Assembly: GCA_024280435.1 (NCBI GenBank)
Contig: JAJRQD010000026.1
Coordinates: forward strand, 11,257 to 75,256
Direction of reading: 5' to 3'
From: an archaeon
GTDB lineage: Archaea; Asgardarchaeota; Heimdallarchaeia; Heimdallarchaeales; Kariarchaeaceae
DNA length: 64,000 bases
Positions 10,340-36,969 of the stretch are shown piece by piece. The translations under genes were made by a program, and so were the position numbers. The first letter of the stretch is position 1, and every line of letters begins with the position of its first letter. The notes beneath the pieces are model-generated. The model was not told where the DNA came from, ran no database searches, and saw only the letters and a list, made by a program, of their open reading frames with translations.

Positions 10340-12288
10340 CAGAGCAGTTAATTGCATGTGATTGTGGTGGAGATTGTGCAGATATACCACAACTACATGA
10401 GAACGATAGTTTCATCAAAGTAATTGGACTACTAATAATCAAGAATAACAGATTCAAATATATTATCTACGCAACCATACTTGCATTTATTTCAATAATA
10501 CTCACATTAATACAATTCGATGAAATTGTGATAAACTTGCTCTGGATCAGCTCTGCAATTATGGGACTGGTAATACCCTTCAGAAGTGCTATAAAAAGTG
10601 CTAGGAAAAAGAACTTGACTATAAACACATTACTGGTTGTTGCCACTGTATCAGCAGTATTATTGCAGTTGTATGAGGAAGCTGTGCTGTTAGTGATTAT
10701 TTTTTCCATGGGTGAGATAATTGAGGGAGTACTTGTCAATATAACTGAGAGGGAGCTGGATATATTCAAAACACTAGTACCTGCAAACACAACTATCATC
10801 AATGATGAGGGCATGTCATTACCAATCAAGTCAGATAGTATTATTAAAGGTCAGAGAATACTGGTCAGAACGGGTGAGATAATACCAATTGATGGTGTTG
10901 TTGTAGATGGCTTGATAGAACTGCAGAACAGCCATATCACAGGAGAAGCTGAGATAGTTACAGTACAGAAGAACGATGCTGTTTTTGCAGGAGGTATTAT
11001 CATTTCAGGAAGTAGTACAATTATTGCCACAGCAGATGCAGGTGAGAACCAGGTGGATTTCATTGTAAAATCAGTGGAAGAGGCTTTGAAACAAAAATCC
11101 ACTGCTGAGAAATTCTCACAGAGATTTGCCAAGAGATATACACCCTTTACTTTTGTACTGGCATTGTTGGTAGCTATTGTCATGCCTTTACTCACAGATA
11201 TGAATTTCCAACTGTGGATAGTACGTGCACTGGTTATACTGGTGGTATCCTGTGCCTGTGGACTGGCTCTATCCGTACCAATAACAATGGTTGCAGCAAT
11301 ATCATCAGCTGCGAAAAGAGGAATACTGATCAGAGGTGGAGATGCCATCGAACAGTTATCAAAGATCAAGACAGTTGTATTTGACAAAACAGGTACTCTG
11401 ACCACAGGTGAACTGGAAGTTATTGATATCAAACTGTTCAATGGAGAGAATATAGATAGTGAGATATTTACACTTGTAAGCAGATCCAACCATCCAGTTT
11501 CCAGGAGTATAAAGCACTATCTTGAACAAAGAGGTGTGGTCAATGGAAAGGAAATCATCTCATTTGATGAGATTGCGGGAAGTGGTCTGATAGCAAAATT
11601 CAGCAACTTCAAATTATCATTGATCAAAGATAGTGAAAAACAGTATCAGAATGATATAATCTCGGTGTATGGCACGCCCAAAACATATTCTCTCCTGATA
11701 ATTGATGAAGTGATAAAGGGCTACATTGTACTCAATGATAAAATAAGAGAAAATGCGAGGGAAACTGTTGAAATACTGAAACAACAGGAGATCCATGTTG
11801 TGATGCTGAGTGGGGACAATTATGATGTATGCAAAGATGTGGCAGATCAGCTAGATATTGATTTCCATGCGGAGGTAAAACCACTTGAGAAAGTGGAGAA
11901 GATAAAGGAGATCCAGGAGAAATATGGATACACAGCGATGGTTGGTGATGGAATAAATGATGCAGCAGCTTTTGCAACATCAGATGTATCATTCGCAATG
12001 GGTCAGACAGGTACACAGATCGCATCTGAAGTAGCTGATGTGGTACTTATCAGAGACAATATTGAAGATATATCACACACAATTATCCATGGGAAGTATG
12101 CCTTTAGAATTGCCAAAATGAATGTACTGCTGGCATTATCAACAATATTTGTTCTGCTATCCCTTGCATTCATTGGAGTGCTTACTCTTGTTACGGGGAT
12201 ATTTGCCAATGAAGTGACTGCATTACTGATAATTACAAATGGATTAAGATTATTGAAATTCAGAGATAATTATTCAACCACTTTATAA
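10336..12288 (+). CDS. P1B-type heavy-metal translocating P-type ATPase
   Basis: 650 aa. DKTGTLT phosphorylation motif, TGEA actuator motif, MVGDGINDAAA hinge, N-terminal CDCGGDC. The TM6 metal motif reads SCACG (CAC rather than CPC). Confidence 0.85.
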   Translation: MTEQLIACDCGGDCADIPQLHENDSFIKVIGLLIIKNNRFKYIIYATILAFISIILTLIQFDEIVINLLWISSAIMGLVIPFRSAIKSARKKNLTINTLLVVATVSAVLLQLYEEAVLLVIIFSMGEIIEGVLVNITERELDIFKTLVPANTTIINDEGMSLPIKSDSIIKGQRILVRTGEIIPIDGVVVDGLIELQNSHITGEAEIVTVQKNDAVFAGGIIISGSSTIIATADAGENQVDFIVKSVEEALKQKSTAEKFSQRFAKRYTPFTFVLALLVAIVMPLLTDMNFQLWIVRALVILVVSCACGLALSVPITMVAAISSAAKRGILIRGGDAIEQLSKIKTVVFDKTGTLTTGELEVIDIKLFNGENIDSEIFTLVSRSNHPVSRSIKHYLEQRGVVNGKEIISFDEIAGSGLIAKFSNFKLSLIKDSEKQYQNDIISVYGTPKTYSLLIIDEVIKGYIVLNDKIRENARETVEILKQQEIHVVMLSGDNYDVCKDVADQLDIDFHAEVKPLEKVEKIKEIQEKYGYTAMVGDGINDAAAFATSDVSFAMGQTGTQIASEVADVVLIRDNIEDISHTIIHGKYAFRIAKMNVLLALSTIFVLLSLAFIGVLTLVTGIFANEVTALLIITNGLRLLKFRDNYSTTL

Positions 12289-17699: not shown

Positions 17700-19577
17700 T
17701 TATTTTTTCAGAGATAGAGCCATAATTTTCTCAACTCTTTTGGACATTTTATTGAAATCGGGTACATCTCCATCCGCCAATCTTGCATTATCAAGTATCT
17801 GATGTATAGTCAGATCGATAATCTCATCATCAGCATTTGCCTCAAATTTCTCATTAAGATCTTTGATTATCTCATGTTCGGGATTGAGTTGTAATACCTT
17901 GCCCATCATTGGTAGAGACATAGTGGAACCAGATTGAGTCTCCATTATCTTCATCGCCCTCTGAAGATCCGATGACATTCCACCTTTGGGTGTGACCAAA
18001 CGTGCAACAGCAGAGATCAGCCTATCAGATGTTTTTACATCTGCAATTGTACCTCCCAGAGTATCTGCAAAACGATCCATCAGTTTTCCAATAGGCCCTG
18101 TTCTCTCTTTCTTCTTAGGTTCCTCATCCTCTTCACCCTCTTTTGGCTCCTCTGGAGGATCTAATTCAACTGATTCATCCTGATCAATAAGGAAGAATTT
18201 TTTCTCATTGTAATCATGAAGATGCATCATTAAAAATGAGTCGATGGCTTCTCCTAGTAGGATAACCTCATAACCCTCTTTCTCATAATATTCAAGATGT
18301 GGGCTCTTTTTCAGTGCTTCAAGATCAAATCCGGACAGATAATATATCTCCTCCTGATCTGGTTTCATCCTCTCGACATACTGTGCAAGAGTTGTAGAAC
18401 CATCTTTTCCATCCTCATGTGTTGTGTGGAAACGAAGCAGTTCAACTAATCTATCCTTGAATTTATCATTGGATGCTATACCTTCTTTGATGAATGGACC
18501 AAACTCTCTGAAGAACTCAAGGTATTTCTCCCCATCATCCTTTGCCATATCCTCAAGTGTTGACAGGATCTTTTTGTGGAGATAATTCTTCATCTGTCTC
18601 TGCATTCTTGAACTCTGCACAACCTCACGGGATACATTTAGCTCAAAATCCTCTGCATCAACCACACCTATAACAAATCTAAGATACTCGGGTAATATAT
18701 CCTTGTTCTTATCATCAATCAGTATCTTTCGGTTGTAAAGTTTAATACCCCAATCACTATCCTGCTGATTGAACATTTTATTCTTTGTCGGGGGTATGTA
18801 CAGTAATCCATAGAATAGACTAGGTGATTCAACTCTTACGTGTATCTTAGTGGTGTAATCACCAAATTGACCGAGATGATTATAGAATTCTTTATACTGC
18901 TCATCAGTCACCTCACTGGGAGATACTCTCCAAAGTGCTGTTTGTTCATTTAATGTATCCTCACCCATTTTAATTGGAAACTCAATATAATTACTGTACT
19001 GACTTACAAGTGACTTTATTCGGTAGTCCTCAAGATATTCACTCTCATCCTCTTTGACATAGAGTATAATATCAGTACCTCGGGTATCCTTATCACACTC
19101 CTCAATTGAGAATGAATTCTGACCTGTTGAGCTCCATTTATGTGCCTTTTCACCAGGAATTGCAGATTTACTGATCACATCAACCTCATCTGCAACGAGA
19201 AATGTTGAGTAAAAGCCAACACCAAATTGACCAATAAGTGTCTCATCCCCACTCTCAATTGCTTTGATAAACTCCTCAGTACCGGACTGAGCAATTGTTC
19301 CCAGGTTCTTCACCATTTCATCCTTTGTCATACCAATACCATAGTCACGAATAGTGATTGTCTTGGCCTCTTTGTCAAGAATGATCTCAATCTCAAGTTC
19401 CCTCTCCTCATCAAAAATCTCCTCATTGGTAAGTTGTCTTATTCTTACCTTATTCAAGGCATCAGATGCGTTTGATAGGACCTCTCTCAGAAATACCTCT
19501 TTCTGTTGATAAAGGCTGTTGATTATGATATCTAATATCTTTGTTGTATCTGTCTTAAATTCATATTCTGAACTCAT
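17700..19577 (-). CDS. htpG: Hsp90-family chaperone HtpG
   Basis: 625 aa. GHKL ATPase N-terminus (FLRELISNASDALDK-like: FLREVLSNASDALNK), IGQFGVGFYS motif, and full middle and C-terminal domains. Confidence 0.9.
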   Translation of the reverse strand: MSSEYEFKTDTTKILDIIINSLYQQKEVFLREVLSNASDALNKVRIRQLTNEEIFDEERELEIEIILDKEAKTITIRDYGIGMTKDEMVKNLGTIAQSGTEEFIKAIESGDETLIGQFGVGFYSTFLVADEVDVISKSAIPGEKAHKWSSTGQNSFSIEECDKDTRGTDIILYVKEDESEYLEDYRIKSLVSQYSNYIEFPIKMGEDTLNEQTALWRVSPSEVTDEQYKEFYNHLGQFGDYTTKIHVRVESPSLFYGLLYIPPTKNKMFNQQDSDWGIKLYNRKILIDDKNKDILPEYLRFVIGVVDAEDFELNVSREVVQSSRMQRQMKNYLHKKILSTLEDMAKDDGEKYLEFFREFGPFIKEGIASNDKFKDRLVELLRFHTTHEDGKDGSTTLAQYVERMKPDQEEIYYLSGFDLEALKKSPHLEYYEKEGYEVILLGEAIDSFLMMHLHDYNEKKFFLIDQDESVELDPPEEPKEGEEDEEPKKKERTGPIGKLMDRFADTLGGTIADVKTSDRLISAVARLVTPKGGMSSDLQRAMKIMETQSGSTMSLPMMGKVLQLNPEHEIIKDLNEKFEANADDEIIDLTIHQILDNARLADGDVPDFNKMSKRVEKIMALSLKK

Positions 19578-22611: not shown

Positions 22612-22824
22612 TTATACGTCTCTAGCTTGAATTGTTTTTCTTCCATTTAATTTTGCTCTTGAAGCAGCATCATCAAGGATACTTGCAACACTTTTAGAGA
22701 CAGCATCAAACAGATCAGAACCGATGTTATAATCACCAGTTGATTTTAGATATTCACGAATTTTTGACTGAACGACCAGCATTGGAGCTGGGTTTTTCTT
22801 TTTACTAGCTTTCTTTTTTGCCAT
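22612..22824 (-). CDS. Histone-fold protein with Lys-rich N-terminal tail and truncated alpha3
   Basis: MAKKKASKKKNPAP tail, then a histone fold (alpha1-L1-alpha2 ...ASRAKLNGRKTIQARDV) that ends 5 aa after the L2 GRKTI motif. AGGTGG Shine-Dalgarno 10 nt upstream of this ATG. The ORF track's earlier Met at 22860 would read through the Shine-Dalgarno sequence. Confidence 0.6.
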   Translation of the reverse strand: MAKKKASKKKNPAPMLVVQSKIREYLKSTGDYNIGSDLFDAVSKSVASILDDAASRAKLNGRKTIQARDV

Positions 22825-22901
22825 GTTTTTGTTTCCACCTTGTCTCGACCTTGTCAACAATATTACTTGCTTTAAAGGCGAGTCGAATTAATTATAAGGG
22901 C

Positions 22902-23234: not shown

Positions 23235-23597
23235 TTAGCCCAATAAAGTATCATCATCTGAAAAATTTACTGCACCCACCTCAAATAGAAGCACTTTTTT
23301 TCTTTCCACCTGATTTATTCTCTCAGCCAGCTCTAATGCTGAATGGCTGAATGCAGATCCAACAATCAAGGCACCATCAAGCTCAGTATTGTTTACAGAT
23401 TTTATTGCCTGATTTATTTTATCCACCCCAATTTTTCTTTTCCAATTATAATGAAGAATACCCATATTTATTGCTTTATCACCTATCTTCGAATGAAATT
23501 CTCCAATAAAATTTGAGGCTTCTCCTGTTTTGGTTCTTGGGATTGTATCTGTTACATACCCACCAAGTGATTCAACCATCTCTCTGAATAAAGACAT
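23235..23597 (-). CDS. Mrr-cat-like restriction endonuclease-fold protein
   Basis: 120 aa; the pattern GY.V..T....GD..I......(K)...AIKSV......GALIVGSAFSHSALELA matches the PD-(D/E)xK Mrr catalytic-domain layout. Confidence 0.45.
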   Translation of the reverse strand: MSLFREMVESLGGYVTDTIPRTKTGEASNFIGEFHSKIGDKAINMGILHYNWKRKIGVDKINQAIKSVNNTELDGALIVGSAFSHSALELAERINQVERKKVLLFEVGAVNFSDDDTLLG

Positions 23598-23835: not shown

Positions 23836-24849
23836 ATGCAGATTGCAGAAGATCTGATACCATATTTTAAGAGCCAGATCAAGGATGAATTTGGTAATAC
23901 TGCAAGATTTGCCAGTATTCAGGATGTGGAATTTGACCAGATACTTCTTGCAGAAATTAACAATATTCATCTCAAGGTCAAAGTACTATCAGATCAGGGT
24001 GCTTGGACACACGACTTGATTATCAGAGAGTTCAAAGATCTTGATAAGTTAAACAGAGAAATTGAGAGATACAATGAATTAGAGAGGAGATGTATTCTCT
24101 TTGAGAATATATTTCCAGCCCCCTTAATCAATGTAGATAAAAATAACAGACAATTGATTTATGAAAAAAATACCGGTCTACAAATAGATAAGATTGAATT
24201 CACAAATAATCTCAAAGATTATCAGCTAGGCAAGATATTTGCCATGATACAGGGTGAGAAATCAAATCCACTTGACGCATCCACTATGAAAGAATTACTT
24301 GAGTATGTGTTATCCACATTACCATTCACTGAGGATGAACGTACCAGGATTTCAATGCTCTTAGAGCCACATTACTATATACTACCCAACTCACTTGGTG
24401 GTTATGTACCATGCACTTTATTTGATCCAACAACAATTGAAGTCAACAAATTATCAGATATTACCAGGGAGAATATAGATGATAACAAAGCATTGTATTT
24501 GACAATACCAATACAGATACCTGAAAGTAATATTGTGGATAGAATGGCAGATATTGCATCCTATTACATAGAAGAGACATACAAGGAATTCTGTACCACC
24601 GGAAGTGTACATAACACCAAGGAGAAAATATATGTATTCTTTGAGGGCTACAATAGTGTGGCAAAACAGATTAACATGCCAACAATGAAGGAACTGTACA
24701 AACATGGCATAACTCTTGATATACAGATGTTATTGATATTCTGGATAATGATACTGAGTAAAATTGGTTCTGGTGAGAATGTATGGTCTAAAGATGTGAC
24801 CAGATTCACTTATTTTATTCTTCTAAAGAAACCATTTTTATTGTTCTAA
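23836..24849 (+). CDS. Hypothetical protein
   Basis: 337 aa; no motif recognised. Confidence 0.4.
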   Translation: MQIAEDLIPYFKSQIKDEFGNTARFASIQDVEFDQILLAEINNIHLKVKVLSDQGAWTHDLIIREFKDLDKLNREIERYNELERRCILFENIFPAPLINVDKNNRQLIYEKNTGLQIDKIEFTNNLKDYQLGKIFAMIQGEKSNPLDASTMKELLEYVLSTLPFTEDERTRISMLLEPHYYILPNSLGGYVPCTLFDPTTIEVNKLSDITRENIDDNKALYLTIPIQIPESNIVDRMADIASYYIEETYKEFCTTGSVHNTKEKIYVFFEGYNSVAKQINMPTMKELYKHGITLDIQMLLIFWIMILSKIGSGENVWSKDVTRFTYFILLKKPFLLF

Positions 24850-25934
24850 TATTTAAAATTACTGAGTTCATTCTCTACCTTACCAAGTACTTGCACAAGA
24901 TCATCATAGTTTGACTGGACTGAGTTGAAATCTCTGCTTGCACTTGATACATCATTTTTTATTGTGACAGCAATTTTATGTGCATTATCAATCTGGGATG
25001 ATAACTGATGCATAGAACCGGTGATCATATCCAATGAATCTTTTGCATTGTCACTCACCTGATGTAACTGTGCTTTAACATTACTTGCTGAATTACTGAT
25101 GTGATTTGATAATCTTCTTAGATTAGAAGCTACCACTTCAAAACCCACTCCAAATTCTCCTGATCTGGATGCTTCTATACCTGCATTCAATGCAAGCATC
25201 TGTGTCTGTTTTCCAATTGATCTCATCAGTTTAGATACATCATCAATAACTGTGATTGCATCATCAAAAGATGAGGTCAGATTATCTATTCCTGAAGATG
25301 AAATCGACAGATAACCCTTCAATTCCTGATATACTGCTATATTTGCCAATGAATTATCAATTCCTAGATTTGATTGTCCAAGAGTACTTGATGTTTTGTT
25401 GAATTTGTTTTCAATCATTGATAACTGATAATTTATCTCACGCATATTCTGATCAAATGATTTGAATGTGTGATTCATATCTTTTCTGAATTCATTGAAA
25501 TTCTTGATTGCCTTATCCTCAGATACACCATAGACAAATTCATCAGCAGCCACAAAGTTTCGATCTTTAAATCGTACTGAGCTCTTTTTTAATAGTTCCA
25601 ATGGTTTCAGATAAACTGTGTAATGAACCAGATAAGCAATTATTATTGCGATGACCACAATCATGGTTGATATAACTACCATTAGATCATTTTTCAGAAT
25701 GGAGAATATCAATGGTAATGTGGCAAAAATTATGGCAAAAACAGTCATGATATTAAGCTGATTATCGATTATTACCTGTTTAAGGGATCTTCTACTCTTA
25801 TCTTCTACAAATAGTTCTTCGTGGATCAAATCATCCCAAAAATAAATGAACTTATCCTTTGCTTCCTCATCTCCTTCTGATAGGAGAGCATTCAATACTT
25901 TTTTTACTCCAGATACCTTACTAGACATTCTCAA
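24846..25934 (-). CDS. Methyl-accepting chemotaxis protein-like membrane sensor
   Basis: TM segment near the N-terminus; the MCP signalling motif QTQMLALNAGIEASRSGEFGVGFEVVASNLRRLS. Confidence 0.65.
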   Translation of the reverse strand: MRMSSKVSGVKKVLNALLSEGDEEAKDKFIYFWDDLIHEELFVEDKSRRSLKQVIIDNQLNIMTVFAIIFATLPLIFSILKNDLMVVISTMIVVIAIIIAYLVHYTVYLKPLELLKKSSVRFKDRNFVAADEFVYGVSEDKAIKNFNEFRKDMNHTFKSFDQNMREINYQLSMIENKFNKTSSTLGQSNLGIDNSLANIAVYQELKGYLSISSSGIDNLTSSFDDAITVIDDVSKLMRSIGKQTQMLALNAGIEASRSGEFGVGFEVVASNLRRLSNHISNSASNVKAQLHQVSDNAKDSLDMITGSMHQLSSQIDNAHKIAVTIKNDVSSASRDFNSVQSNYDDLVQVLGKVENELSNFKY

Positions 25935-26169: not shown

Positions 26170-26715
26170 ATGTATATGGTTGATGAAAGTAAATCACCAA
26201 TATTTGGTCTCTATATTCTAGATGAATCTGGCATTCCATTGATTGCAAGACAGTATTCAGACCATATTGCAGAGAATGAAGCAATATTAATTGGTGGTTT
26301 CTTCTCAGCAATTGATATATTCTCAAGATCTAGTTTACAGACAAGATTAACAGATATCGGTATGGAGAACAAGCGTTTCTATTTCAAAAGCTCACATAAT
26401 TTTGTACAGGTAATACTAACCACCTCAGACAAACCCATGTTTATAGATCAGAATACTCTTGCACTGGTATCTCTGGTCCAAGAAAGAGTACAGCTACTAA
26501 TTGAGACGATAATTGATCTGGTTGATAGAAATTTGCTGAATGTAGAACAGATAATCAAAAACTGTGGTACATCATTGGATTCAATTGTATTCGAAGCAGC
26601 ATTTGAAGAATATGAGGACACAGATAATGTGAACATGAAGAGAGGTAAAACACTAGATTATACCAAGATTGCAGATAATACATTATTAAAAAAGATCAAC
26701 CATTTATTTGATTAG
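26170..26715 (+). CDS. Roadblock/longin-like (profilin-like fold) domain protein
   Basis: Alternating beta/alpha pattern GLYILDESGIPLIARQY...AILIGGFFSAIDIFS...FYFKSSHNFVQVIL, typical of roadblock/LC7 or longin folds. Lies next to GTPase genes. Confidence 0.35.
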   Translation: MYMVDESKSPIFGLYILDESGIPLIARQYSDHIAENEAILIGGFFSAIDIFSRSSLQTRLTDIGMENKRFYFKSSHNFVQVILTTSDKPMFIDQNTLALVSLVQERVQLLIETIIDLVDRNLLNVEQIIKNCGTSLDSIVFEAAFEEYEDTDNVNMKRGKTLDYTKIADNTLLKKINHLFD

Positions 26716-26724
26716 TATCCACAA

Positions 26725-28899
26725 TTAGTTTTTCTTATCTAGAGCCACAAGATACATCTTATCATCAATCAATTTGAATTCCGCCTGCAATTCACCATTG
26801 ACAATTAACTCCGTGATTAATTTCTCCACATTCTTTATATCTTTACTAAGCGTATCTGCAAGCGTATTCAATTGTACCATACGCAGTTTCTCAACAGACC
26901 GTGCAAGCTCCATTCGCTCAAATTTTCGCAAAGTAGCTTCTGGAAGAATAGAACCGATAACATTGGATAATGTCACCTTATCACCTGCTTTCCATGCACC
27001 TATCACTTTGCTGACAATAGAATAAAAAGAGCCTGTAAACCGGAGTATAGATGAACGACGGGTTATCTCCTCAATTTTTGAGGTGGAGAACCGTGTTACC
27101 ATCTCAATTGCAACTGAATTTGCATCAAAAGAGGTTAAGATATTCCATAGCTCAGCATTTGATCCATGCTTGGATTCTATCACCTGCAATATCTCCCCAA
27201 TTGCAATATTAGATAATTTTTTCTTACTTATCACCAATTGAAGAATTGTTATTTTTGAGGTCTCAAGTACTGTTTGCTTGGTATCATCAGACAGTGATGC
27301 CAGGTCTCGAACTATGCTTCCAATCAGAGAAATGGTAAAGTCATCAGCCTCCTCGTACAGAAGATGATATAGAAAGATCAACTGCCTTCTCTTCTCATCC
27401 TGTTTCTCTCTTACACTGTTCATCATATGTCGTTGCAATATCTGTTGATAGATTACCTTATGCTCATCTACAAATTTTGCAAGTAAACGTGCACCATTTT
27501 TTCTTGAGGTAATAGACCTGGATTCAATCCAACGAGATATTAAACTCTCCGCAATCTCTTGTTCCTTCTCACTATCATTCTTGCTCTGTTTTATTAACCA
27601 TGCATATGCGGGATGTGCCAGATTTATCAAAGTAAGATCAATAGCCCGATTGACTGCATCAAACCATTCCTCCTCATCAAGAACAAGAAATGGCTCAATT
27701 GCATCAGTTACTGTCTCAACATGTTTTTCATCTATAACATCATCCACCTCTATTTTTTCAGGTTCGGCCAGTGCCACCTCATCATTTTCTTCAGCTACAT
27801 CCGCTGTGAGTTCAATATTTTCCTCTTTTACAATACCAGATTCTTCGGGTGATTCCAACAATTGAGAGATAGGTTTGGCATCATTGATTATTTCTTTTGT
27901 ATTTGAAGAAGATTCACCATTATCATCCACCTCATGGTTTATCCCCCCGATACTGAGTATAGATGCAAGACTACTCGATGAGAATACACCATCCTCGTAG
28001 AAATCCTCAACTATTACTTTACAGCCCTCTTCTCTGAGATGTTCCACTTCATCAATCTGTGATCTATCAATTATCACGTAATCAGCCAATTCTGATAGAT
28101 ATGGAGCAAAAGCAGATAAGGAAGCTTCCATTCCCATTGCCTCAAGAATAGTATTCTCATTCTCAGTTCCCTCCTCATCAAGTGTCCACACAAAAGCAAG
28201 TGGGGTACTAGTCTTTTTTATCTGATTTTTTAGCTCTTTACTCTGCAGAATTGTGGCAAGTGATACATAATCAGTTGCAAGAATAATCACTAAATCTGCA
28301 TTGTCTATCAGATCACCTATTTCATCCTTGAATTTTAATGATTTCAGCAGTTCCAAATTCTCAATGGTATATTTCTTATCAGGATATTTACGTTTTTTAT
28401 CAGATTCTGGAGGGTCATCTACCAAAAGTTCACCTCGCTCAGCAAAATACCTGAGAGGAGCGTATTTTTTACCTTTGAACAGCAATAAATTTGGGTTTTC
28501 ATTTACAAGTGGATGAAGTGTAATATCTGTTCTTCCATTCTCATCTAACAATATATTGTATGTAGTTTTTAGATTCTTGCTATTCTGATCAATCTGAGAT
28601 ATATGTGAGATCAATGCCAAATTTTCTTCATCAAGATCCAATCTATCATTTTCCTTCAATAAAGCTGATAAAGAATCTGAGATTGAAACATATCTATTAG
28701 CTCCTAATTGTGTCAGAAGAAAACGCACTTCATGATAATAAGTCTGGTTAACTGCATTTCTGACCTTGGGAGGTAGGGTATAATCAAGCATATTCATTAA
28801 AATGAAATTTATCCTATCAATTTCTTTTATACCTAATAATTTGTCGATAATATTATTTGGCTTATGGCCTAGACTTATCACGCTTATTGTCTTTGTCAA
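26725..28899 (-). CDS. Large multidomain protein: N-terminal alpha/beta domain, acidic linker, helical repeats, C-terminal winged-helix (PCI-like)
   Basis: 724 aa. Acidic stretch (EVDDNGESS...EENDEVALAEPEKIEVDD), helical body, and a C-terminal ...ELARSVEKLRMVQLNTLADTLSKDIKNVEKLITELIVNGELQAEFKLIDDKMYLVAL resembling PCI winged-helix modules. Confidence 0.45.
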   Translation of the reverse strand: MTKTISVISLGHKPNNIIDKLLGIKEIDRINFILMNMLDYTLPPKVRNAVNQTYYHEVRFLLTQLGANRYVSISDSLSALLKENDRLDLDEENLALISHISQIDQNSKNLKTTYNILLDENGRTDITLHPLVNENPNLLLFKGKKYAPLRYFAERGELLVDDPPESDKKRKYPDKKYTIENLELLKSLKFKDEIGDLIDNADLVIILATDYVSLATILQSKELKNQIKKTSTPLAFVWTLDEEGTENENTILEAMGMEASLSAFAPYLSELADYVIIDRSQIDEVEHLREEGCKVIVEDFYEDGVFSSSSLASILSIGGINHEVDDNGESSSNTKEIINDAKPISQLLESPEESGIVKEENIELTADVAEENDEVALAEPEKIEVDDVIDEKHVETVTDAIEPFLVLDEEEWFDAVNRAIDLTLINLAHPAYAWLIKQSKNDSEKEQEIAESLISRWIESRSITSRKNGARLLAKFVDEHKVIYQQILQRHMMNSVREKQDEKRRQLIFLYHLLYEEADDFTISLIGSIVRDLASLSDDTKQTVLETSKITILQLVISKKKLSNIAIGEILQVIESKHGSNAELWNILTSFDANSVAIEMVTRFSTSKIEEITRRSSILRFTGSFYSIVSKVIGAWKAGDKVTLSNVIGSILPEATLRKFERMELARSVEKLRMVQLNTLADTLSKDIKNVEKLITELIVNGELQAEFKLIDDKMYLVALDKKN

Positions 28900-29173
28900 C
28901 TGAAATTCCCAACCAGCTAGTCATCATCAAATACCTATTCAATGATGATAAAACCATATTATTTTATTTATTTAAGAGCTTTACCTTTTCCTCTCGATAG
29001 AGGAAAAAGTAAACGTGAAAAATCAAATATTTTATACTAAAACTAGTACTTTTACCAACACAAAGTATTGTTTTAGGATAGAAAAAAACAAGTAACACAA
29101 GTTACGATAAATGCTCATTTTATATTTATATTAACAATAAAAACTTTAAATGTAAGATATTTTATATAACTCT

Positions 29174-29752
29174 ATGAACAAAAATTGTTTTGTACTATTA
29201 ACAGGTTTGATGAGTGCGGGTAAGAGTACCATCCTAAGAGAATACATGCTTAATTTCAAAACAATTGAATTTACTCGTCCACCAGTAGAGGCCAAATTCC
29301 AGGGAAAAGACTTTGAGTTTCTAGATTCCATATTTGCAATAAGAAATCGAGCAGATCAGAAAGTATACAATTTCTATGAATTGGATGCACCCACGGTTAA
29401 AAAATGGATACAGTTTATCAGTATCGCAGATGGAATTATAGTTGTAGCTAATATAAATCAGAAAATACAGTATAGCAAACCAAAAGCACTGCTAGACGTA
29501 ATATTAGAGAATGCACCCAATACACCAATACTTTTTGTAATCGGTAATTATGATGATTATGATGCAGCTAAACAGAAAGTGATTGAAGATTACAGAACAG
29601 ATAGAGTAAAGCCGGATAATCTTGAATTCATTGCACTTGGCAAGGGTAAGGAATATTTTGATGATGTCTATGGAAAAAGAATTCAGTTTGATAATAATGT
29701 ATTGAAAAGTATTTTTGAGTATCATTTCAGCTCAAAAAATGATAGAATTTAG
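29174..29752 (+). CDS. Divergent P-loop GTPase-like protein (degenerate G3/G4)
   Basis: G1 GLMSAGKST present. Positions equivalent to DxxG and NKxD read DAPT and GNYDD. Layout similar to SR-beta/Rag-like small GTPases. Confidence 0.45.
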   Translation: MNKNCFVLLTGLMSAGKSTILREYMLNFKTIEFTRPPVEAKFQGKDFEFLDSIFAIRNRADQKVYNFYELDAPTVKKWIQFISIADGIIVVANINQKIQYSKPKALLDVILENAPNTPILFVIGNYDDYDAAKQKVIEDYRTDRVKPDNLEFIALGKGKEYFDDVYGKRIQFDNNVLKSIFEYHFSSKNDRI

Positions 29753-29851
29753 ATCAAAAAATATTCCAATCAGCATATTGTAAAATATCTTTGAACAATA
29801 AAAACTGTAAAACATAGATATCGTTTTTTAAAAGTATTCGAATATCATTTT

Positions 29852-30616
29852 ATGGCAAAAAAAAACAGATCTGAAGATGAAAACAAAATGATTGGATCAA
29901 TTCTAAAAATTAGAAATACTATGAAAGATGATTTGAAAGATTATCAGGTCATTCTTGGTTTCTCAGGATTTGGAAATATAGGATATTTAAGCCTCTCCCA
30001 TATAATTGAGACAGCAGAACTTGAGGCATTCAGTTTCTGGGGAGCAAATTCATGGTTTTACCGAGATAATATAGAATCCACCATAACTGCATATATGCAT
30101 CATGAATCAAAATCAGTCATAATTACATCTAGACTACCTATTTTCGTATCCGCCATGACAAAGGCCTTTTGGGACAGATTAATTGAAGATATACTGGCAT
30201 GGGAATGTAGAAGATATATCGTCATTGCAGGTCTGAGGGAAGAGACCAGAGAGGCAATGTCAACCGATTGGGCTGCATTCATTCCTACTAAAAAATGGAC
30301 CAAACTATATGGACATACAAGAAATTTTGCTGATAAACTCACCATGATTGGTCCTTTGAGCTCTATACTACTATTAGGAACAACTATGAACATACCAGTA
30401 CTTGGATTACTAGCATATTGTAATCTGGAAGATGACCCTGATGCGGCATTGTTTACACTCAAACAGATTGAAGAACTGGCCGACATCAATATCGAAATGA
30501 AAGATAAATTACAGCTATTTGACTTTAATTTCTTGTCAACGGGTATAACACAGAATACAGAGATAGTTGAAGAGGACCTTGATGATGATGAATTCAACAT
30601 AGATGATCTACTGTGA
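29852..30616 (+). CDS. PAC2-family proteasome assembly chaperone-like protein
   Basis: 254 aa; N-terminal GFSGFGNIGYLSLSHIIE resembles the PAC2/COG1938 motif; acidic C-terminal tail. Confidence 0.5.
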   Translation: MAKKNRSEDENKMIGSILKIRNTMKDDLKDYQVILGFSGFGNIGYLSLSHIIETAELEAFSFWGANSWFYRDNIESTITAYMHHESKSVIITSRLPIFVSAMTKAFWDRLIEDILAWECRRYIVIAGLREETREAMSTDWAAFIPTKKWTKLYGHTRNFADKLTMIGPLSSILLLGTTMNIPVLGLLAYCNLEDDPDAALFTLKQIEELADINIEMKDKLQLFDFNFLSTGITQNTEIVEEDLDDDEFNIDDLL

Positions 30617-30830
30617 GTGGTGGCGCCAAGAATAACTGTATTATAGTTACATTTATCTGATAATACCACCTGAATATAATAATAGGTGTTTTGCAAATCA
30701 CAAGAACTGATTTCAAAGATTGATCAATGAGAAAATGGAAATCATGTCAATAATATTTTGTTTTGATTAATATACGAATTAGAAATATCTTTATACAACT
30801 TCAATGTTCCACACACTTGAGGTATAAAAT

Positions 30831-31400
30831 ATTTCATCTACATCAGGAAGAAAACTATACAAAGTAAGTCTCCTTGGCGATGGTGGTGTTGGAAAGACAT
30901 CACTAAGACATCGTTACCTGGGTCAAGGATTTAAAGCCAATTACATGGCAACTATTGGTGCAGACTTCGCTATAAAGAAATTAGGTGATAATATTATTCA
31001 GATATGGGATCTTGCAGGTCAAGAAAGATTCTCAGTTGTAAGAGAGGGATATTATATTGGTACAAAGGGTGCAATGCTTGTTTTTGATATCACCAGACCA
31101 GAGACATTTCGTTCCATTCCAAATTGGATACGAGAATTATTGAATAACCTCAGCCATGATGATATTATTCCCCTTGTGCTTATAGGAAACAAAGCAGATC
31201 TACGAGAGATGGATAGCCCTAATTATATTTCTAGAGAGCAGGGAATATCATATGCACAGGAATTAGCAGACTGGTCAGAATTTGATGTACCCTATGTTGA
31301 AACCTCAGCAAAGACTGGTTTAAATGTAGACCTGATATTCAATACACTTGTAAATAATATTGCTAAAAAACAGGGAAATTTTTTCTCAAATATTACTTAA
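30831..31400 (+). CDS. Rab/Ras-like small GTPase (start codon uncertain)
   Basis: In-frame upstream of the first ATG (30945) lie G1 (LLGDGGVGKTS) and switch I. Downstream are WDLAGQERF (G3), GNKADL (G4) and ETSAKTG (G5). No ATG/GTG/TTG occurs between the upstream stop (30825-30827) and 30945. The ATT at 30831 is taken provisionally as the start. Confidence 0.75.
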   Translation: MSSTSGRKLYKVSLLGDGGVGKTSLRHRYLGQGFKANYMATIGADFAIKKLGDNIIQIWDLAGQERFSVVREGYYIGTKGAMLVFDITRPETFRSIPNWIRELLNNLSHDDIIPLVLIGNKADLREMDSPNYISREQGISYAQELADWSEFDVPYVETSAKTGLNVDLIFNTLVNNIAKKQGNFFSNIT

Positions 31401-36408: not shown

Positions 36409-36969
36409 TTGAATAAAATACAATGTCTAGAATGTGAGTATGAGAACCCAGATTATGCAAATTTTTGTGTAAACTGTGGAAATAATATTTCCGGGACCAA
36501 AGCTAGATTTATGCGACTTCAGAAGAGATTAACACACAAATCAAAAGATTGGATACAAGATATTAGAAATTCCATTGATAATCGCATAAATGGTATGCTA
36601 TATCAAATGGATACTAATCAGCAATTCAAGATTGGAGGCATAAACATTCCAGATAACAGAAAGAATACCATCAGAAATGCGCTCAACTCATTTCAGAGCA
36701 AGTATGGTACTGAAGAAGAGGTAAGTGAGGATTTCAAAATATGGATGGACAATCTAGAGGATATGCTTGAGGAACAGAAGTGTATAGTCTGCTATTCCAA
36801 CTGGAAGAAGAATGATGACATTGTAGTTTGTAAACATTGCAGATCAGGAGGACATAAAGAGCATCTATTCAGCTGGGTAATGAATAATAACAACTGTCCA
36901 CTTTGCAGACAAAATTTAACATCAACAGGTCTGATTAAAATAGAATTTAAGGAAAAAATAAACAATTAA
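36409..36969 (+). CDS. Zinc-ribbon plus RING-H2-like finger protein
   Basis: N-terminal C-x2-C...C-x2-C (CLECEYENPDYANFCVNCG). C-terminal CIVC-x11-CKH-x5-H-x2-H-LFSW-x6-CPLC aligns with the RING-H2 cross-brace (C-x-H...H..C...W...CPxC). Confidence 0.55.
   Translation: MNKIQCLECEYENPDYANFCVNCGNNISGTKARFMRLQKRLTHKSKDWIQDIRNSIDNRINGMLYQMDTNQQFKIGGINIPDNRKNTIRNALNSFQSKYGTEEEVSEDFKIWMDNLEDMLEEQKCIVCYSNWKKNDDIVVCKHCRSGGHKEHLFSWVMNNNNCPLCRQNLTSTGLIKIEFKEKINN

Follow-up and report, generated by a model that had tools for sequence, protein, structure and literature searches.

Does a run of neighboring eukaryote-like genes in an Asgard archaeal genome encode proteins that act together, or have these genes simply stayed side by side? 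We asked this question of a 64,000-nucleotide stretch of DNA (the window) from a member of the Kariarchaeaceae (assembly GCA_024280435.1, contig JAJRQD010000026.1, forward-strand positions 11,257 to 75,256). An earlier note, made from the sequence alone, had singled out five adjacent genes at positions 26170 to 31400 of the window, had ascribed to them a roadblock/longin-like protein, a PCI-like protein of 724 amino acids (aa), a divergent P-loop GTPase, a PAC2-like chaperone, and a Rab-like GTPase, and had suggested that they might form a co-regulated GTPase/roadblock module. We refer to these genes as A to E. The open reading frame list of the window contains all five, nonoverlapping and at the positions given in that note, and the G+C content of the window is 31 to 41%. 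Our analysis revealed two things that are new: a protein family (that of gene B) in which a CofD-fold domain is joined to a PCI-type domain, and the conserved association of this family with a specific GTPase (C), a longin (A), and a PAC2-like protein (D). Eukaryote-like GTPases, longins, and PAC2 proteins as such were already expected in Heimdallarchaeota. The suggested module is only partly upheld: the conserved unit consists of PAC2, C, and B plus the longin gene A and a gene for an MCP-signal-domain protein, the Rab-like gene is probably not a core member, and the genes do not form a single operon. Three or four of the five genes remain side by side in at least eight diverged lineages, and the MCP-signal gene, which lies outside the span first described, belongs with them. 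The features are as follows.

26170-26715, plus strand: gene A, longin-fold protein, 181 aa (open reading frame and fold).
26725-28899, minus strand: gene B, 724 aa, TTG start at 28899, stop codon at 26725-26727.
27925-28899, minus strand: N-terminal domain of B (aa 1-325), divergent CofD/FbiA-fold alpha/beta domain.
27691-27924, minus strand: linker of B (aa 326-403), acidic, low complexity, predicted disordered (predicted local distance difference test [pLDDT] score of 22-28).
26725-27690, minus strand: C-terminal PCI-type domain of B (aa 404-724), from AlphaFold2 secondary structure, Foldseek, Pfam, and the family profile.
26743-26880, minus strand: winged helix of B (aa 674-719), from the AlphaFold2 model.
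28900-29173: B/C spacer, 274 bp, AT-rich, presumed bidirectional promoter region (sequence read directly).
29174-29752, plus strand: gene C, divergent Arf-leaning small P-loop GTPase, 192 aa (Pfam, and family profile against the PDB).
29852-30616, plus strand: gene D, PAC2-family protein, 254 aa (Pfam PAC2).
30831-31400, plus strand: gene E, Rab-like small GTPase, 189 aa if started at ATT 30831 (Pfam Ras, PDB, and start-codon analysis).
24846-25934, minus strand: MCP-signal-domain protein, 362 aa (Pfam MCPsignal).
23836-24849, plus strand: X337, conserved neighbor, 337 aa, no Pfam family (orthologues beside the MCP-like gene).

Genes A and B are convergent with 9 bp between them, B and C diverge over 274 bp, and gaps of 99 bp and 214 bp separate C from D and D from E (with E taken from 30831). 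On the other side, A and the MCP-like gene diverge over a 235-bp spacer, and X337 is convergent with the MCP-like gene, the two overlapping by 4 bp. Scans of the window for tRNA genes and Rfam families returned no features.

Which organisms carry these genes? Proteins 100% identical to A and B are found in assembly GCA_024278115.1, and the next relatives come from Candidatus Heimdallarchaeota metagenome-assembled genomes (MAGs). Because every close homologue of A, B, and C derives from Heimdallarchaeota or Kariarchaeota MAGs or metagenomes, the earlier proposal of an Asgard-like archaeon is borne out; the assignment is sound, and we saw no sign of chimerism in the contig. A contig search with B as a single sequence found no homologue, whereas the same search with the B alignment as query found them in 16 GTDB species representatives, at about 42 to 57% identity in Heimdallarchaeota and Kariarchaeota and at 22 to 31% (best segment) in other Heimdallarchaeota, Sigynarchaeum, Thorarchaeota, and Promethearchaeota (Loki). 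A metagenome scan added five loci. Families A and C are narrow and overlap in distribution. A word-based search with A alone yielded two proteins, and a four-sequence profile yielded 14 clusters; for C, 1.84 billion representatives were searched exhaustively with HMMER and 21 matched, with Heimdallarchaeota, "Asgard group," and Ca. Kariarchaeum pelagius as their named sources.

We then mapped A, B, and C (by family hidden Markov models), D, E, the MCP-like gene, and the flanking genes on all fetched loci (numbered with the prefix L). The B proteins of the closer group (tier 1) represent at least eight lineages and are 37 to 52% identical to one another. The window, L001, and L002 share the order X337(+), MCP(-), A(+), B(-), C(+), D(+), E(+). 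In L007/L008, the order is MCP, A, B, C, D; in L009 and L029, it is Rab (followed in L029 by a 125-aa gene), D, C, B, a 297-aa gene, A, MCP; in L012, it is Rab, D, C, B, a gap, and A at the contig end; and in L005, it is MCP, Rab, a 131-aa gene, A, a 294-aa gene, B. The locus of Ca. Kariarchaeum pelagius (L025) reads D, C, B, a 297-aa gene, and then an unrelated 190-aa gene, which was considered as an A homologue and rejected (hhalign probability, 0.6%). Quantification of these maps revealed that C and B are adjacent in 7 of 8 lineages and that D and C are adjacent at every locus holding C on a long-enough contig. A lies within one gene of B in 7/8 lineages, the MCP-like gene is near A in 6/7, and D and B are linked in six of eight. 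The PAC2-C-B and B-A-MCP adjacencies have been kept across at least eight lineages despite inversions, reordering, and insertions. Attachment is least stable for the Rab-like gene, which has no copy next to the cluster in L007/L008 or L025 and is found elsewhere in L005.

How much rearrangement has this neighborhood survived? In the window, L001, and L002, C is followed by PAC2, and both are transcribed away from B. In L007/L010, L009, L012, L025, and L029, the order is PAC2, C, B on one strand. A single inversion cannot yield one order from the other, so more than one event is needed. In L005, L009, L025, and L029, a gene of 294 to 297 aa has come to lie between B and A, and the cluster is not dispersed by it. 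In L025, the most distant of the tier-1 genomes, only the pairs PAC2-C and C-B are still adjacent as they are in this part of the window, and the 20 kb fetched contains none of Rab, SfsA, A, MCP, and X337.

These data suggest, tentatively and with slightly less than even confidence on our part, that the cluster may encode a lineage-specific (Heimdallarchaeota/Kariarchaeota), membrane-linked GTPase switch complex built around B, in which C would be an atypical GTPase, A a longin platform, B a PCI scaffold, and D a PAC2-like partner. Several points weigh against this proposal, the first being that it is drawn from domain identities and gene context. The genes of the window alternate in strand, with four directions in turn and hence at least four transcription units, so that the cluster genes are not one operon. 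At L005, B, A, and MCP occur but C and PAC2 are not nearby, and at L025 it is A and MCP that are not found near PAC2-C-B. All of these neighbors are absent from the surroundings of distant B homologues (22 to 27% identity; Loki, Thor, Sigyn, and other Heimdall lineages), which in L017 and L023 hold HEPN, oxidoreductase, hydrolase, and unknown genes. The degenerate G3 and G4 motifs of C, described below, may put its binding of guanine nucleotides in doubt. Finally, the GTPase genes of strain MK-D1 are generally not in operons with longin/roadblock genes (Tran et al. 2024, PMC10933270), and most Asgard eukaryotic signature protein (ESP) genes lie outside conserved neighborhoods (Liu et al., bioRxiv 10.1101/2020.10.19.343400).

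Could the adjacency be no more than ancestral order? The alternative that survives best holds that these eukaryote-like genes are functionally unrelated and are neighbors through an ancestral order kept in the sampled Heimdallarchaeota/Kariarchaeota lineages. Between about 20.9 and 40.2 kb of the window (∼20 kb), gene order matches that of L001 and L009, including unrelated housekeeping genes (an ilvE-type aminotransferase, SfsA, polyprenyl synthase, and HSP90), and the coarse succession of aminotransferase, cluster, HSP90, and AAA ATPase persists even in L025. Such collinearity and slow rearrangement mean that part of the conservation is inherited gene order, and this is the main caveat to a functional complex. 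The strand alternation and the mostly unclustered ESP genes and GTPase/longin pairs of the two studies just cited point in the same direction. However, within this frame Rab, SfsA, X337, the histone gene, the 120-aa gene, and the 297-aa gene have been lost, inserted, or moved, whereas PAC2-C-B has remained contiguous through a reordering that needs more than one event and has supplied the only window adjacencies kept in L025. On balance, we regard inheritance of order as the whole explanation as possible but unlikely.

What, then, is the protein at the center of the proposed switch complex? The AlphaFold2 model of B (built from five sequences; pLDDT, 69.5) has three regions: an alpha/beta domain at residues 1 to 325 (pLDDT of about 80 to 90), a linker that carries the motif KPISQLLESPEE, conserved in the tier-1 alignments, and a C-terminal half with 15 helices in residues 409 to 671 followed by a strand-helix-helix-strand-strand winged helix at 674 to 719. 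A helical-repeat solenoid resembling tetratricopeptide repeats, placed directly N-terminal of a winged helix, is the arrangement of PCI proteins. A Foldseek comparison of B with the PDB placed CofD/FbiA first and, from rank 6 onward, only PCI subunits of the 26S proteasome lid (of Rpn3/5/6/7/9 type), the COP9 signalosome (CSN), and eIF3, with E values of 2e-4 to 4e-3 over ∼330 to 420 columns and probabilities of 0.96 to 1.00. The predicted root mean square deviations from these subunits are large (11 to 18 Å), as expected for flexible solenoids. Sequence profiles agree at the level of the family. Pfam PCI (PF01399) matches 14/14 of the family C-domains, and 6 of these 14, all full-length homologues from other Asgard lineages, score above the 22-bit gathering score (24.3 to 32.0 bits). 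The B of the window scores 12.9 bits (E 0.13), below that cutoff, and its tier-1 relatives score 16 to 21 bits. When the family profile of the C-domain was compared with the PDB, it matched only eIF3e (E 6e-4) and eIF3c, apart from CCDC32 at E 1.5. The homologues with PCI matches align with the window B over its full length, including both domains. The C-terminal half of B is thus a PCI-type domain, established for the family, with a subthreshold copy in the window; the earlier PCI-like call was right for this part of the protein, but the CofD-fold domain had been overlooked.

Gene B was read from TTG 28899, where its MTKTISVISLG lines up with the orthologous MTAKIAVISIG (window 28792-28899). 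The public protein identical to B (P0001) has 688 aa, a gene call shorter than 724 aa; judging from the TTG start, we infer that this call uses a later start and drops the first strand. The distant B homologues (∼860 aa; L014, L016, L017, L019, L021, and L024) have a C-terminal extension in which an acidic/Lys-rich stretch precedes a terminal C2H2-type zinc-finger motif. A Ras-like GTPase gene lies a constant 6 to 7 kb downstream of the distant B in L014, L017, L021, and L024, the only loci that reach that far.

Given a PCI protein beside a PAC2 protein, does the cluster serve protein degradation? Gene D matches Pfam PAC2 (PF09754) at E 1.6e-12 (48.1 bits; cutoff, 25.8), with residues 34 to 219 aligned to positions 2 to 199 of a 215-position model. 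It therefore exceeds the gathering score over most of the model length and belongs to the PAC2 family, as the earlier description of a PAC2-like chaperone had it. The chaperone half of that description fared less well. Archaeal PbaA/PbaB-type proteins dock on the 20S ring via a C-terminal HbYX (hydrophobic-tyrosine-any residue) motif. The C terminus of D is ...EFNIDDLL and that of its orthologues is ...GYDLSDL[ITV], without HbYX; an acidic tail ending in aromatic-D-[LI]-x-[DE]-L-x is common to the C termini of the eight orthologues compared. Against the NCBIfam archaeal chaperone equivalog TIGR00161, D reaches only E 0.032 (13.9 bits; cutoff, 199), and it has no sequence relative in the PDB. 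The hallmarks of a proteasome chaperone are thus lacking in D. These observations bear directly on a second alternative, in which D and B, controlled by C and A, would have the archaeal 20S proteasome or a lid-like regulator as their target. The strong PAC2 match, the resemblance of the B C-domain to lid subunits as well as to CSN and eIF3, and the linkage of D and B in six of eight lineages are what this alternative would predict, but the tail of D and its very weak match to the archaeal chaperone model are not. Moreover, among the annotated neighbors of the cluster there is no MPN/JAB, proteasome, or ubiquitin-like gene and no second PCI gene, and the PCI fold serves eIF3 and CSN too. We consider this alternative improbable.

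The N-terminal domain of B has the CofD fold, yet its sequence does not reach the scores of the CofD families: the window B scores 20.9 bits against Pfam CofD (PF01933; cutoff, 30) and 15.8 bits against TIGR01826 (cutoff, 196). The domain profile matched de novo TIM barrels in the PDB, spuriously, and CofD only at E 0.35. The CofD relationship accordingly rests on structure, since the match at the level of sequence profiles is insignificant. The N-terminal loop reads LGHKPN, with G11 as the sole invariant Gly at that loop in the family, and presumably takes the place of the Gly-rich loop of CofD/YvcK. The CofD-fold domain of B is probably noncatalytic or repurposed, and B is not to be filed as a CofD enzyme. 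That B is nonetheless an enzyme, either a CofD/FbiA-like phosphotransferase or a YvcK-like UDP-sugar-binding regulator in a cluster with a metabolic or cell-envelope role, is very improbable: the weak CofD and TIGR01826 matches and, by synteny, an F420-dependent oxidoreductase gene ∼6 kb away favor it, but the profile similarity is insignificant, conservation is lacking at the Gly-rich loop, a disordered linker and a PCI scaffold follow the domain in the same protein, the neighbors are of signaling or trafficking type, and the cluster showed no further F420 biosynthesis genes.

Returning to the switch complex, is C a GTPase? Taken alone, C matches Pfam Arf (1.8e-4) and Ras (6.5e-3) below threshold. 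A profile of 12 family sequences (A5) matched Arl6, Arf1, Arl1, Arl3, M-Ras, and Rap in the PDB at 4e-5 to 1e-3, with Arl6 at 3.7e-5 (positions 3 to 125) and Arl1 at 2e-4 (positions 4 to 155); the scores, ∼22 to 27 bits, are modest. Profile similarity across G1 to G4 places C in the Ras-superfamily (TRAFAC) fold, in keeping with the earlier call of a divergent P-loop GTPase. The motifs themselves are those of an atypical member. G1 is intact (GLMSAGKS in the window; GxMxxGKS in the family). G3 is ELDAPT in the window and an invariant ELD-x-PT in the family, with neither the DxxG glycine nor the catalytic Gln. G4 is degenerate (GNYDD in the window) and variable in the family, with NKAD only in P0029. 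C thus lacks the canonical Arf set of G1 to G5, including the WDxGGQ of G3 and the NKxD of G4. The P-loop begins at residue 11, after MNKNCFVLLT, which leaves no Arf-type N-terminal amphipathic helix or myristoylation extension. C is thus a divergent Ras-superfamily GTPase domain and not a member of the Arf family; it is possibly a slow GTPase or a pseudo-GTPase. A C-type GTPase domain is also found at the C terminus of ∼385-aa proteins (P0027, P0030, P0033, and P0038) whose N-terminal ∼200 residues resemble leucine-rich repeats (LRR) by eye. If that resemblance is true, these proteins would have a ROCO-like LRR-GTPase arrangement without COR.

Gene A consists of a longin core (approximately residues 10 to 121) followed by a helical, acidic C-terminal tail. 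The topology of the core is beta-beta-alpha-beta-beta-beta-alpha(-alpha), without an N-terminal helix. Absence of that helix is a feature that separates longin from roadblock. A had no match in Pfam or NCBIfam at E ≤ 1 and no PDB sequence match at E ≤ 10, so that none of the curated longin/roadblock families (Pfam Longin, Sedlin_N, Clat_adaptor_s, Robl_LC7, and similar) recognizes it. A is therefore a longin domain with membership at the level of fold only: of the earlier roadblock/longin-like call, the longin topology stands and the sequence match to a curated longin/roadblock family does not.

How might these proteins work together? On the model of known platforms (TRAPP, Mon1-Ccz1, Ragulator, and MglB) and of PCI assemblies, we can assign candidate roles. 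B would oligomerize or dock partners through its PCI domain, as the PCI subunits of the proteasome lid, CSN, and eIF3 do. A would be a platform for the GTPase C (as guanine nucleotide exchange factor, GTPase-activating protein, or effector) in the manner of longin/roadblock dimers for Rab, Arf, Rag, and MglA. Given that both its G3 and its G4 are degenerate, C is probably a switch that hydrolyzes slowly or not at all. D, with its C-terminal tail as the docking element, may be a bound partner or an assembly factor. Linkage of the complex to the membrane or a signal could come from the MCP-signal membrane protein, and in other lineages the 297-aa membrane-anchored protein, rich in N-glycosylation sequons, may serve this end too. 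The Rab-like GTPase E is a frequent neighbor but probably not a core member.

As for E itself, the match to Pfam Ras is strong (E 1.2e-31, 110 bits), and all of its best 60 PDB matches are Rab or Ypt proteins, led by a Thorarchaeota Rab (7ezb; 4.9e-34) and Rab7 (5.8e-34) and including Ypt7 and Rab8. Its motifs are GDGGVGKTS (G1), WDLAGQE (G3), NKAD (G4), and ETSAK (G5), and the RabF-like motifs TIGADF, IWDLAGQE, and LVFDIT were recognized by eye. With a Ras profile match, canonical G motifs, and Rabs as its closest solved relatives, E is Rab-like, as first claimed from WDLAGQERF, GNKADL, and ETSAKTG. It ends in ...KKQGNFFSNIT and has no cysteine there, hence no C-terminal Cys prenylation motif. 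Missing C-terminal prenylation cysteines are known for Asgard Rabs.

Where does E begin? As first called (ATG 30945 to 31400, 151 aa), the reading frame exists but lacks G1; GDGGVGKTS lies in frame upstream, so that this start is wrong and E must begin near 30831. An in-frame TAA is present at 30825-30827, and there is no ATG, GTG, or TTG from there to the P-loop. ATT 30831 lines up with the initiator Met of the orthologues (MSTSRTLYKV in L002; MARNLYKI in L001). The L005 orthologue (64% identical over the tblastn match; L005 1579-1746) likewise has only ATA or ATT before the P-loop, and that gene was also called from an internal Met, in a form without the P-loop. A sequencing error is unlikely, because the same absence of a start occurs in two independent cases. 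Readthrough of the stop codon from ATG 30804 is unsupported, as the upstream ATG is out of frame in L005. The pattern in the window (30804-30947) points to noncanonical initiation or recent start loss, and initiation at a noncanonical codon would be the simplest reading.

The MCP-like gene matches Pfam MCPsignal (E 3.7e-21, 76 bits) and encodes two adjacent hydrophobic helices near residues 60 to 110 (by eye), followed by a coiled-coil MCP signaling domain. Its orthologue adjoins A in L001, L002, L004, L007/L008, L009, and L013/L030 and is near A in L005 and L029. Orthologues of X337 lie beside the MCP-like gene in L001, L002, L004, and L005 and occur twice in L009. The 294- to 297-aa protein encoded between B and A in four lineages (L005 3268-4152, L009 12267-13160, L025 13141-14034, and L029 8974-9903) is absent from the window and has no Pfam family; by eye, it has a signal peptide (in 2/3 sequences read), many NxS/T sequons, and a C-terminal transmembrane anchor. 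A 120-aa protein with a weak match to Mrr_cat, of restriction-endonuclease fold (window 23235-23597, minus strand), accompanies the MCP/A side in several lineages (L005 2299-2694, L013, and L029), and in L005 it lies between Rab and A.

Three genes elsewhere in the window, cited earlier as further signs of an Asgard-like archaeon, were also confirmed. The RING-H2-like finger (36409-36969) is recognized by Pfam right at threshold (Prok-RING_1, 29.1 bits versus 29.1; zf-RING_2, 26.9 bits versus 27.3), and the exonuclease at 1419-2000 matches Pfam RNase_T at E 2e-25. The small, Lys-tailed histone (22612-22860, minus strand) has no Pfam match at E ≤ 0.01, but its best solved relatives are histone-fold proteins (8cmp and 8fvx, short CBFD_NFYB_HMF-domain proteins, at E of about 1e-7) and a DUF1931 protein. 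The HSP90/HtpG homologue lies at 17700-19577. A defense-system reading of the window was rejected, since PADLOC models matched weakly, as coiled-coil or P-loop noise.

Why would such a cluster matter? Asgard archaea have dozens of small GTPases and longin/roadblock proteins that are rarely co-encoded, so that the pairing of regulator and GTPase cannot be read from their genomes (PMC10933270; bioRxiv 10.1101/2020.10.19.343400). A neighborhood in which a specific GTPase, a longin protein, a PCI scaffold, and a PAC2-like protein are kept over deep divergence defines four or five proteins for co-expression testing. If the adjacency is merely inherited, the finding reduces to five correctly recognized eukaryote-like genes, as expected for the group. 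PCI scaffolds are a hallmark of eukaryotic multisubunit complexes, and a full-length PCI family across Asgard, whose domain combination has not been seen in eukaryotes, is relevant to the origin of such scaffolds. We found no description of the CofD-PCI architecture in the searchable literature, and the literature searched mentions PCI-like winged helices in Asgard only for ESCRT-associated proteins. A bolder, and rather doubtful, possibility is that B stands for an undescribed, Asgard-wide family in which a true PCI scaffold is fused with a CofD-fold domain put to a new use, and that this family is a prokaryotic relative of the scaffolds behind the eukaryotic proteasome lid, CSN, and eIF3. 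In Heimdallarchaeota/Kariarchaeota, B would then gather an atypical Arf-like (pseudo)GTPase, a longin protein acting as platform, a PAC2-like protein, and an MCP-like membrane receptor into one physical complex. In such a complex, an Asgard small GTPase would be paired naturally, by its own genome, with its regulator and effector scaffold.

How does the cluster compare with known systems? D resembles the PAC2 and archaeal PbaA-PbaB chaperone family in matching PF09754 over nearly its whole length and differs in its acidic tail without HbYX and in having a GTPase gene, not proteasome genes, as its linked neighbor. E shares the canonical G1 to G5 and RabF-like motifs of Asgard Rab-like GTPases (PDB 7EZB) and of Rab7/Rab8, but its start codon is noncanonical or lost. 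Compared with the longin/roadblock platforms of the TRAPP core, Mon1-Ccz1, Ragulator-Rag, and MglB-MglA, A is a single domain without a Pfam longin/roadblock sequence match, the GTPase presumed to be its partner has degenerate G3 and G4 motifs, and the platform role is proposed from its gene adjacency to C and E. A genomic parallel is the Asgard operon of a LAMTOR1-like roadblock protein, a Rab-like GTPase, and DENN (bioRxiv 10.1101/2020.10.19.343400), which likewise displays a conserved link between the roadblock superfamily and a small GTPase. The cluster described here is limited to Heimdallarchaeota/Kariarchaeota, and in place of DENN and LAMTOR1-like proteins it has a CofD-PCI hub, a PAC2-like protein, and an MCP-signal protein. 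Set beside CofD/FbiA (2-phospho-L-lactate transferase) and YvcK-like proteins, the N-terminal domain of B differs in its 13 to 16% identity and insignificant profile similarity. Its C-terminal half, in contrast, shares with the PCI subunits of the 26S lid, CSN, and eIF3 a helical solenoid followed by a winged helix, both in predicted structure and in family-level matches to Pfam PCI, and what sets B apart from those subunits is that an acidic, disordered linker joins this scaffold to a CofD-fold domain.

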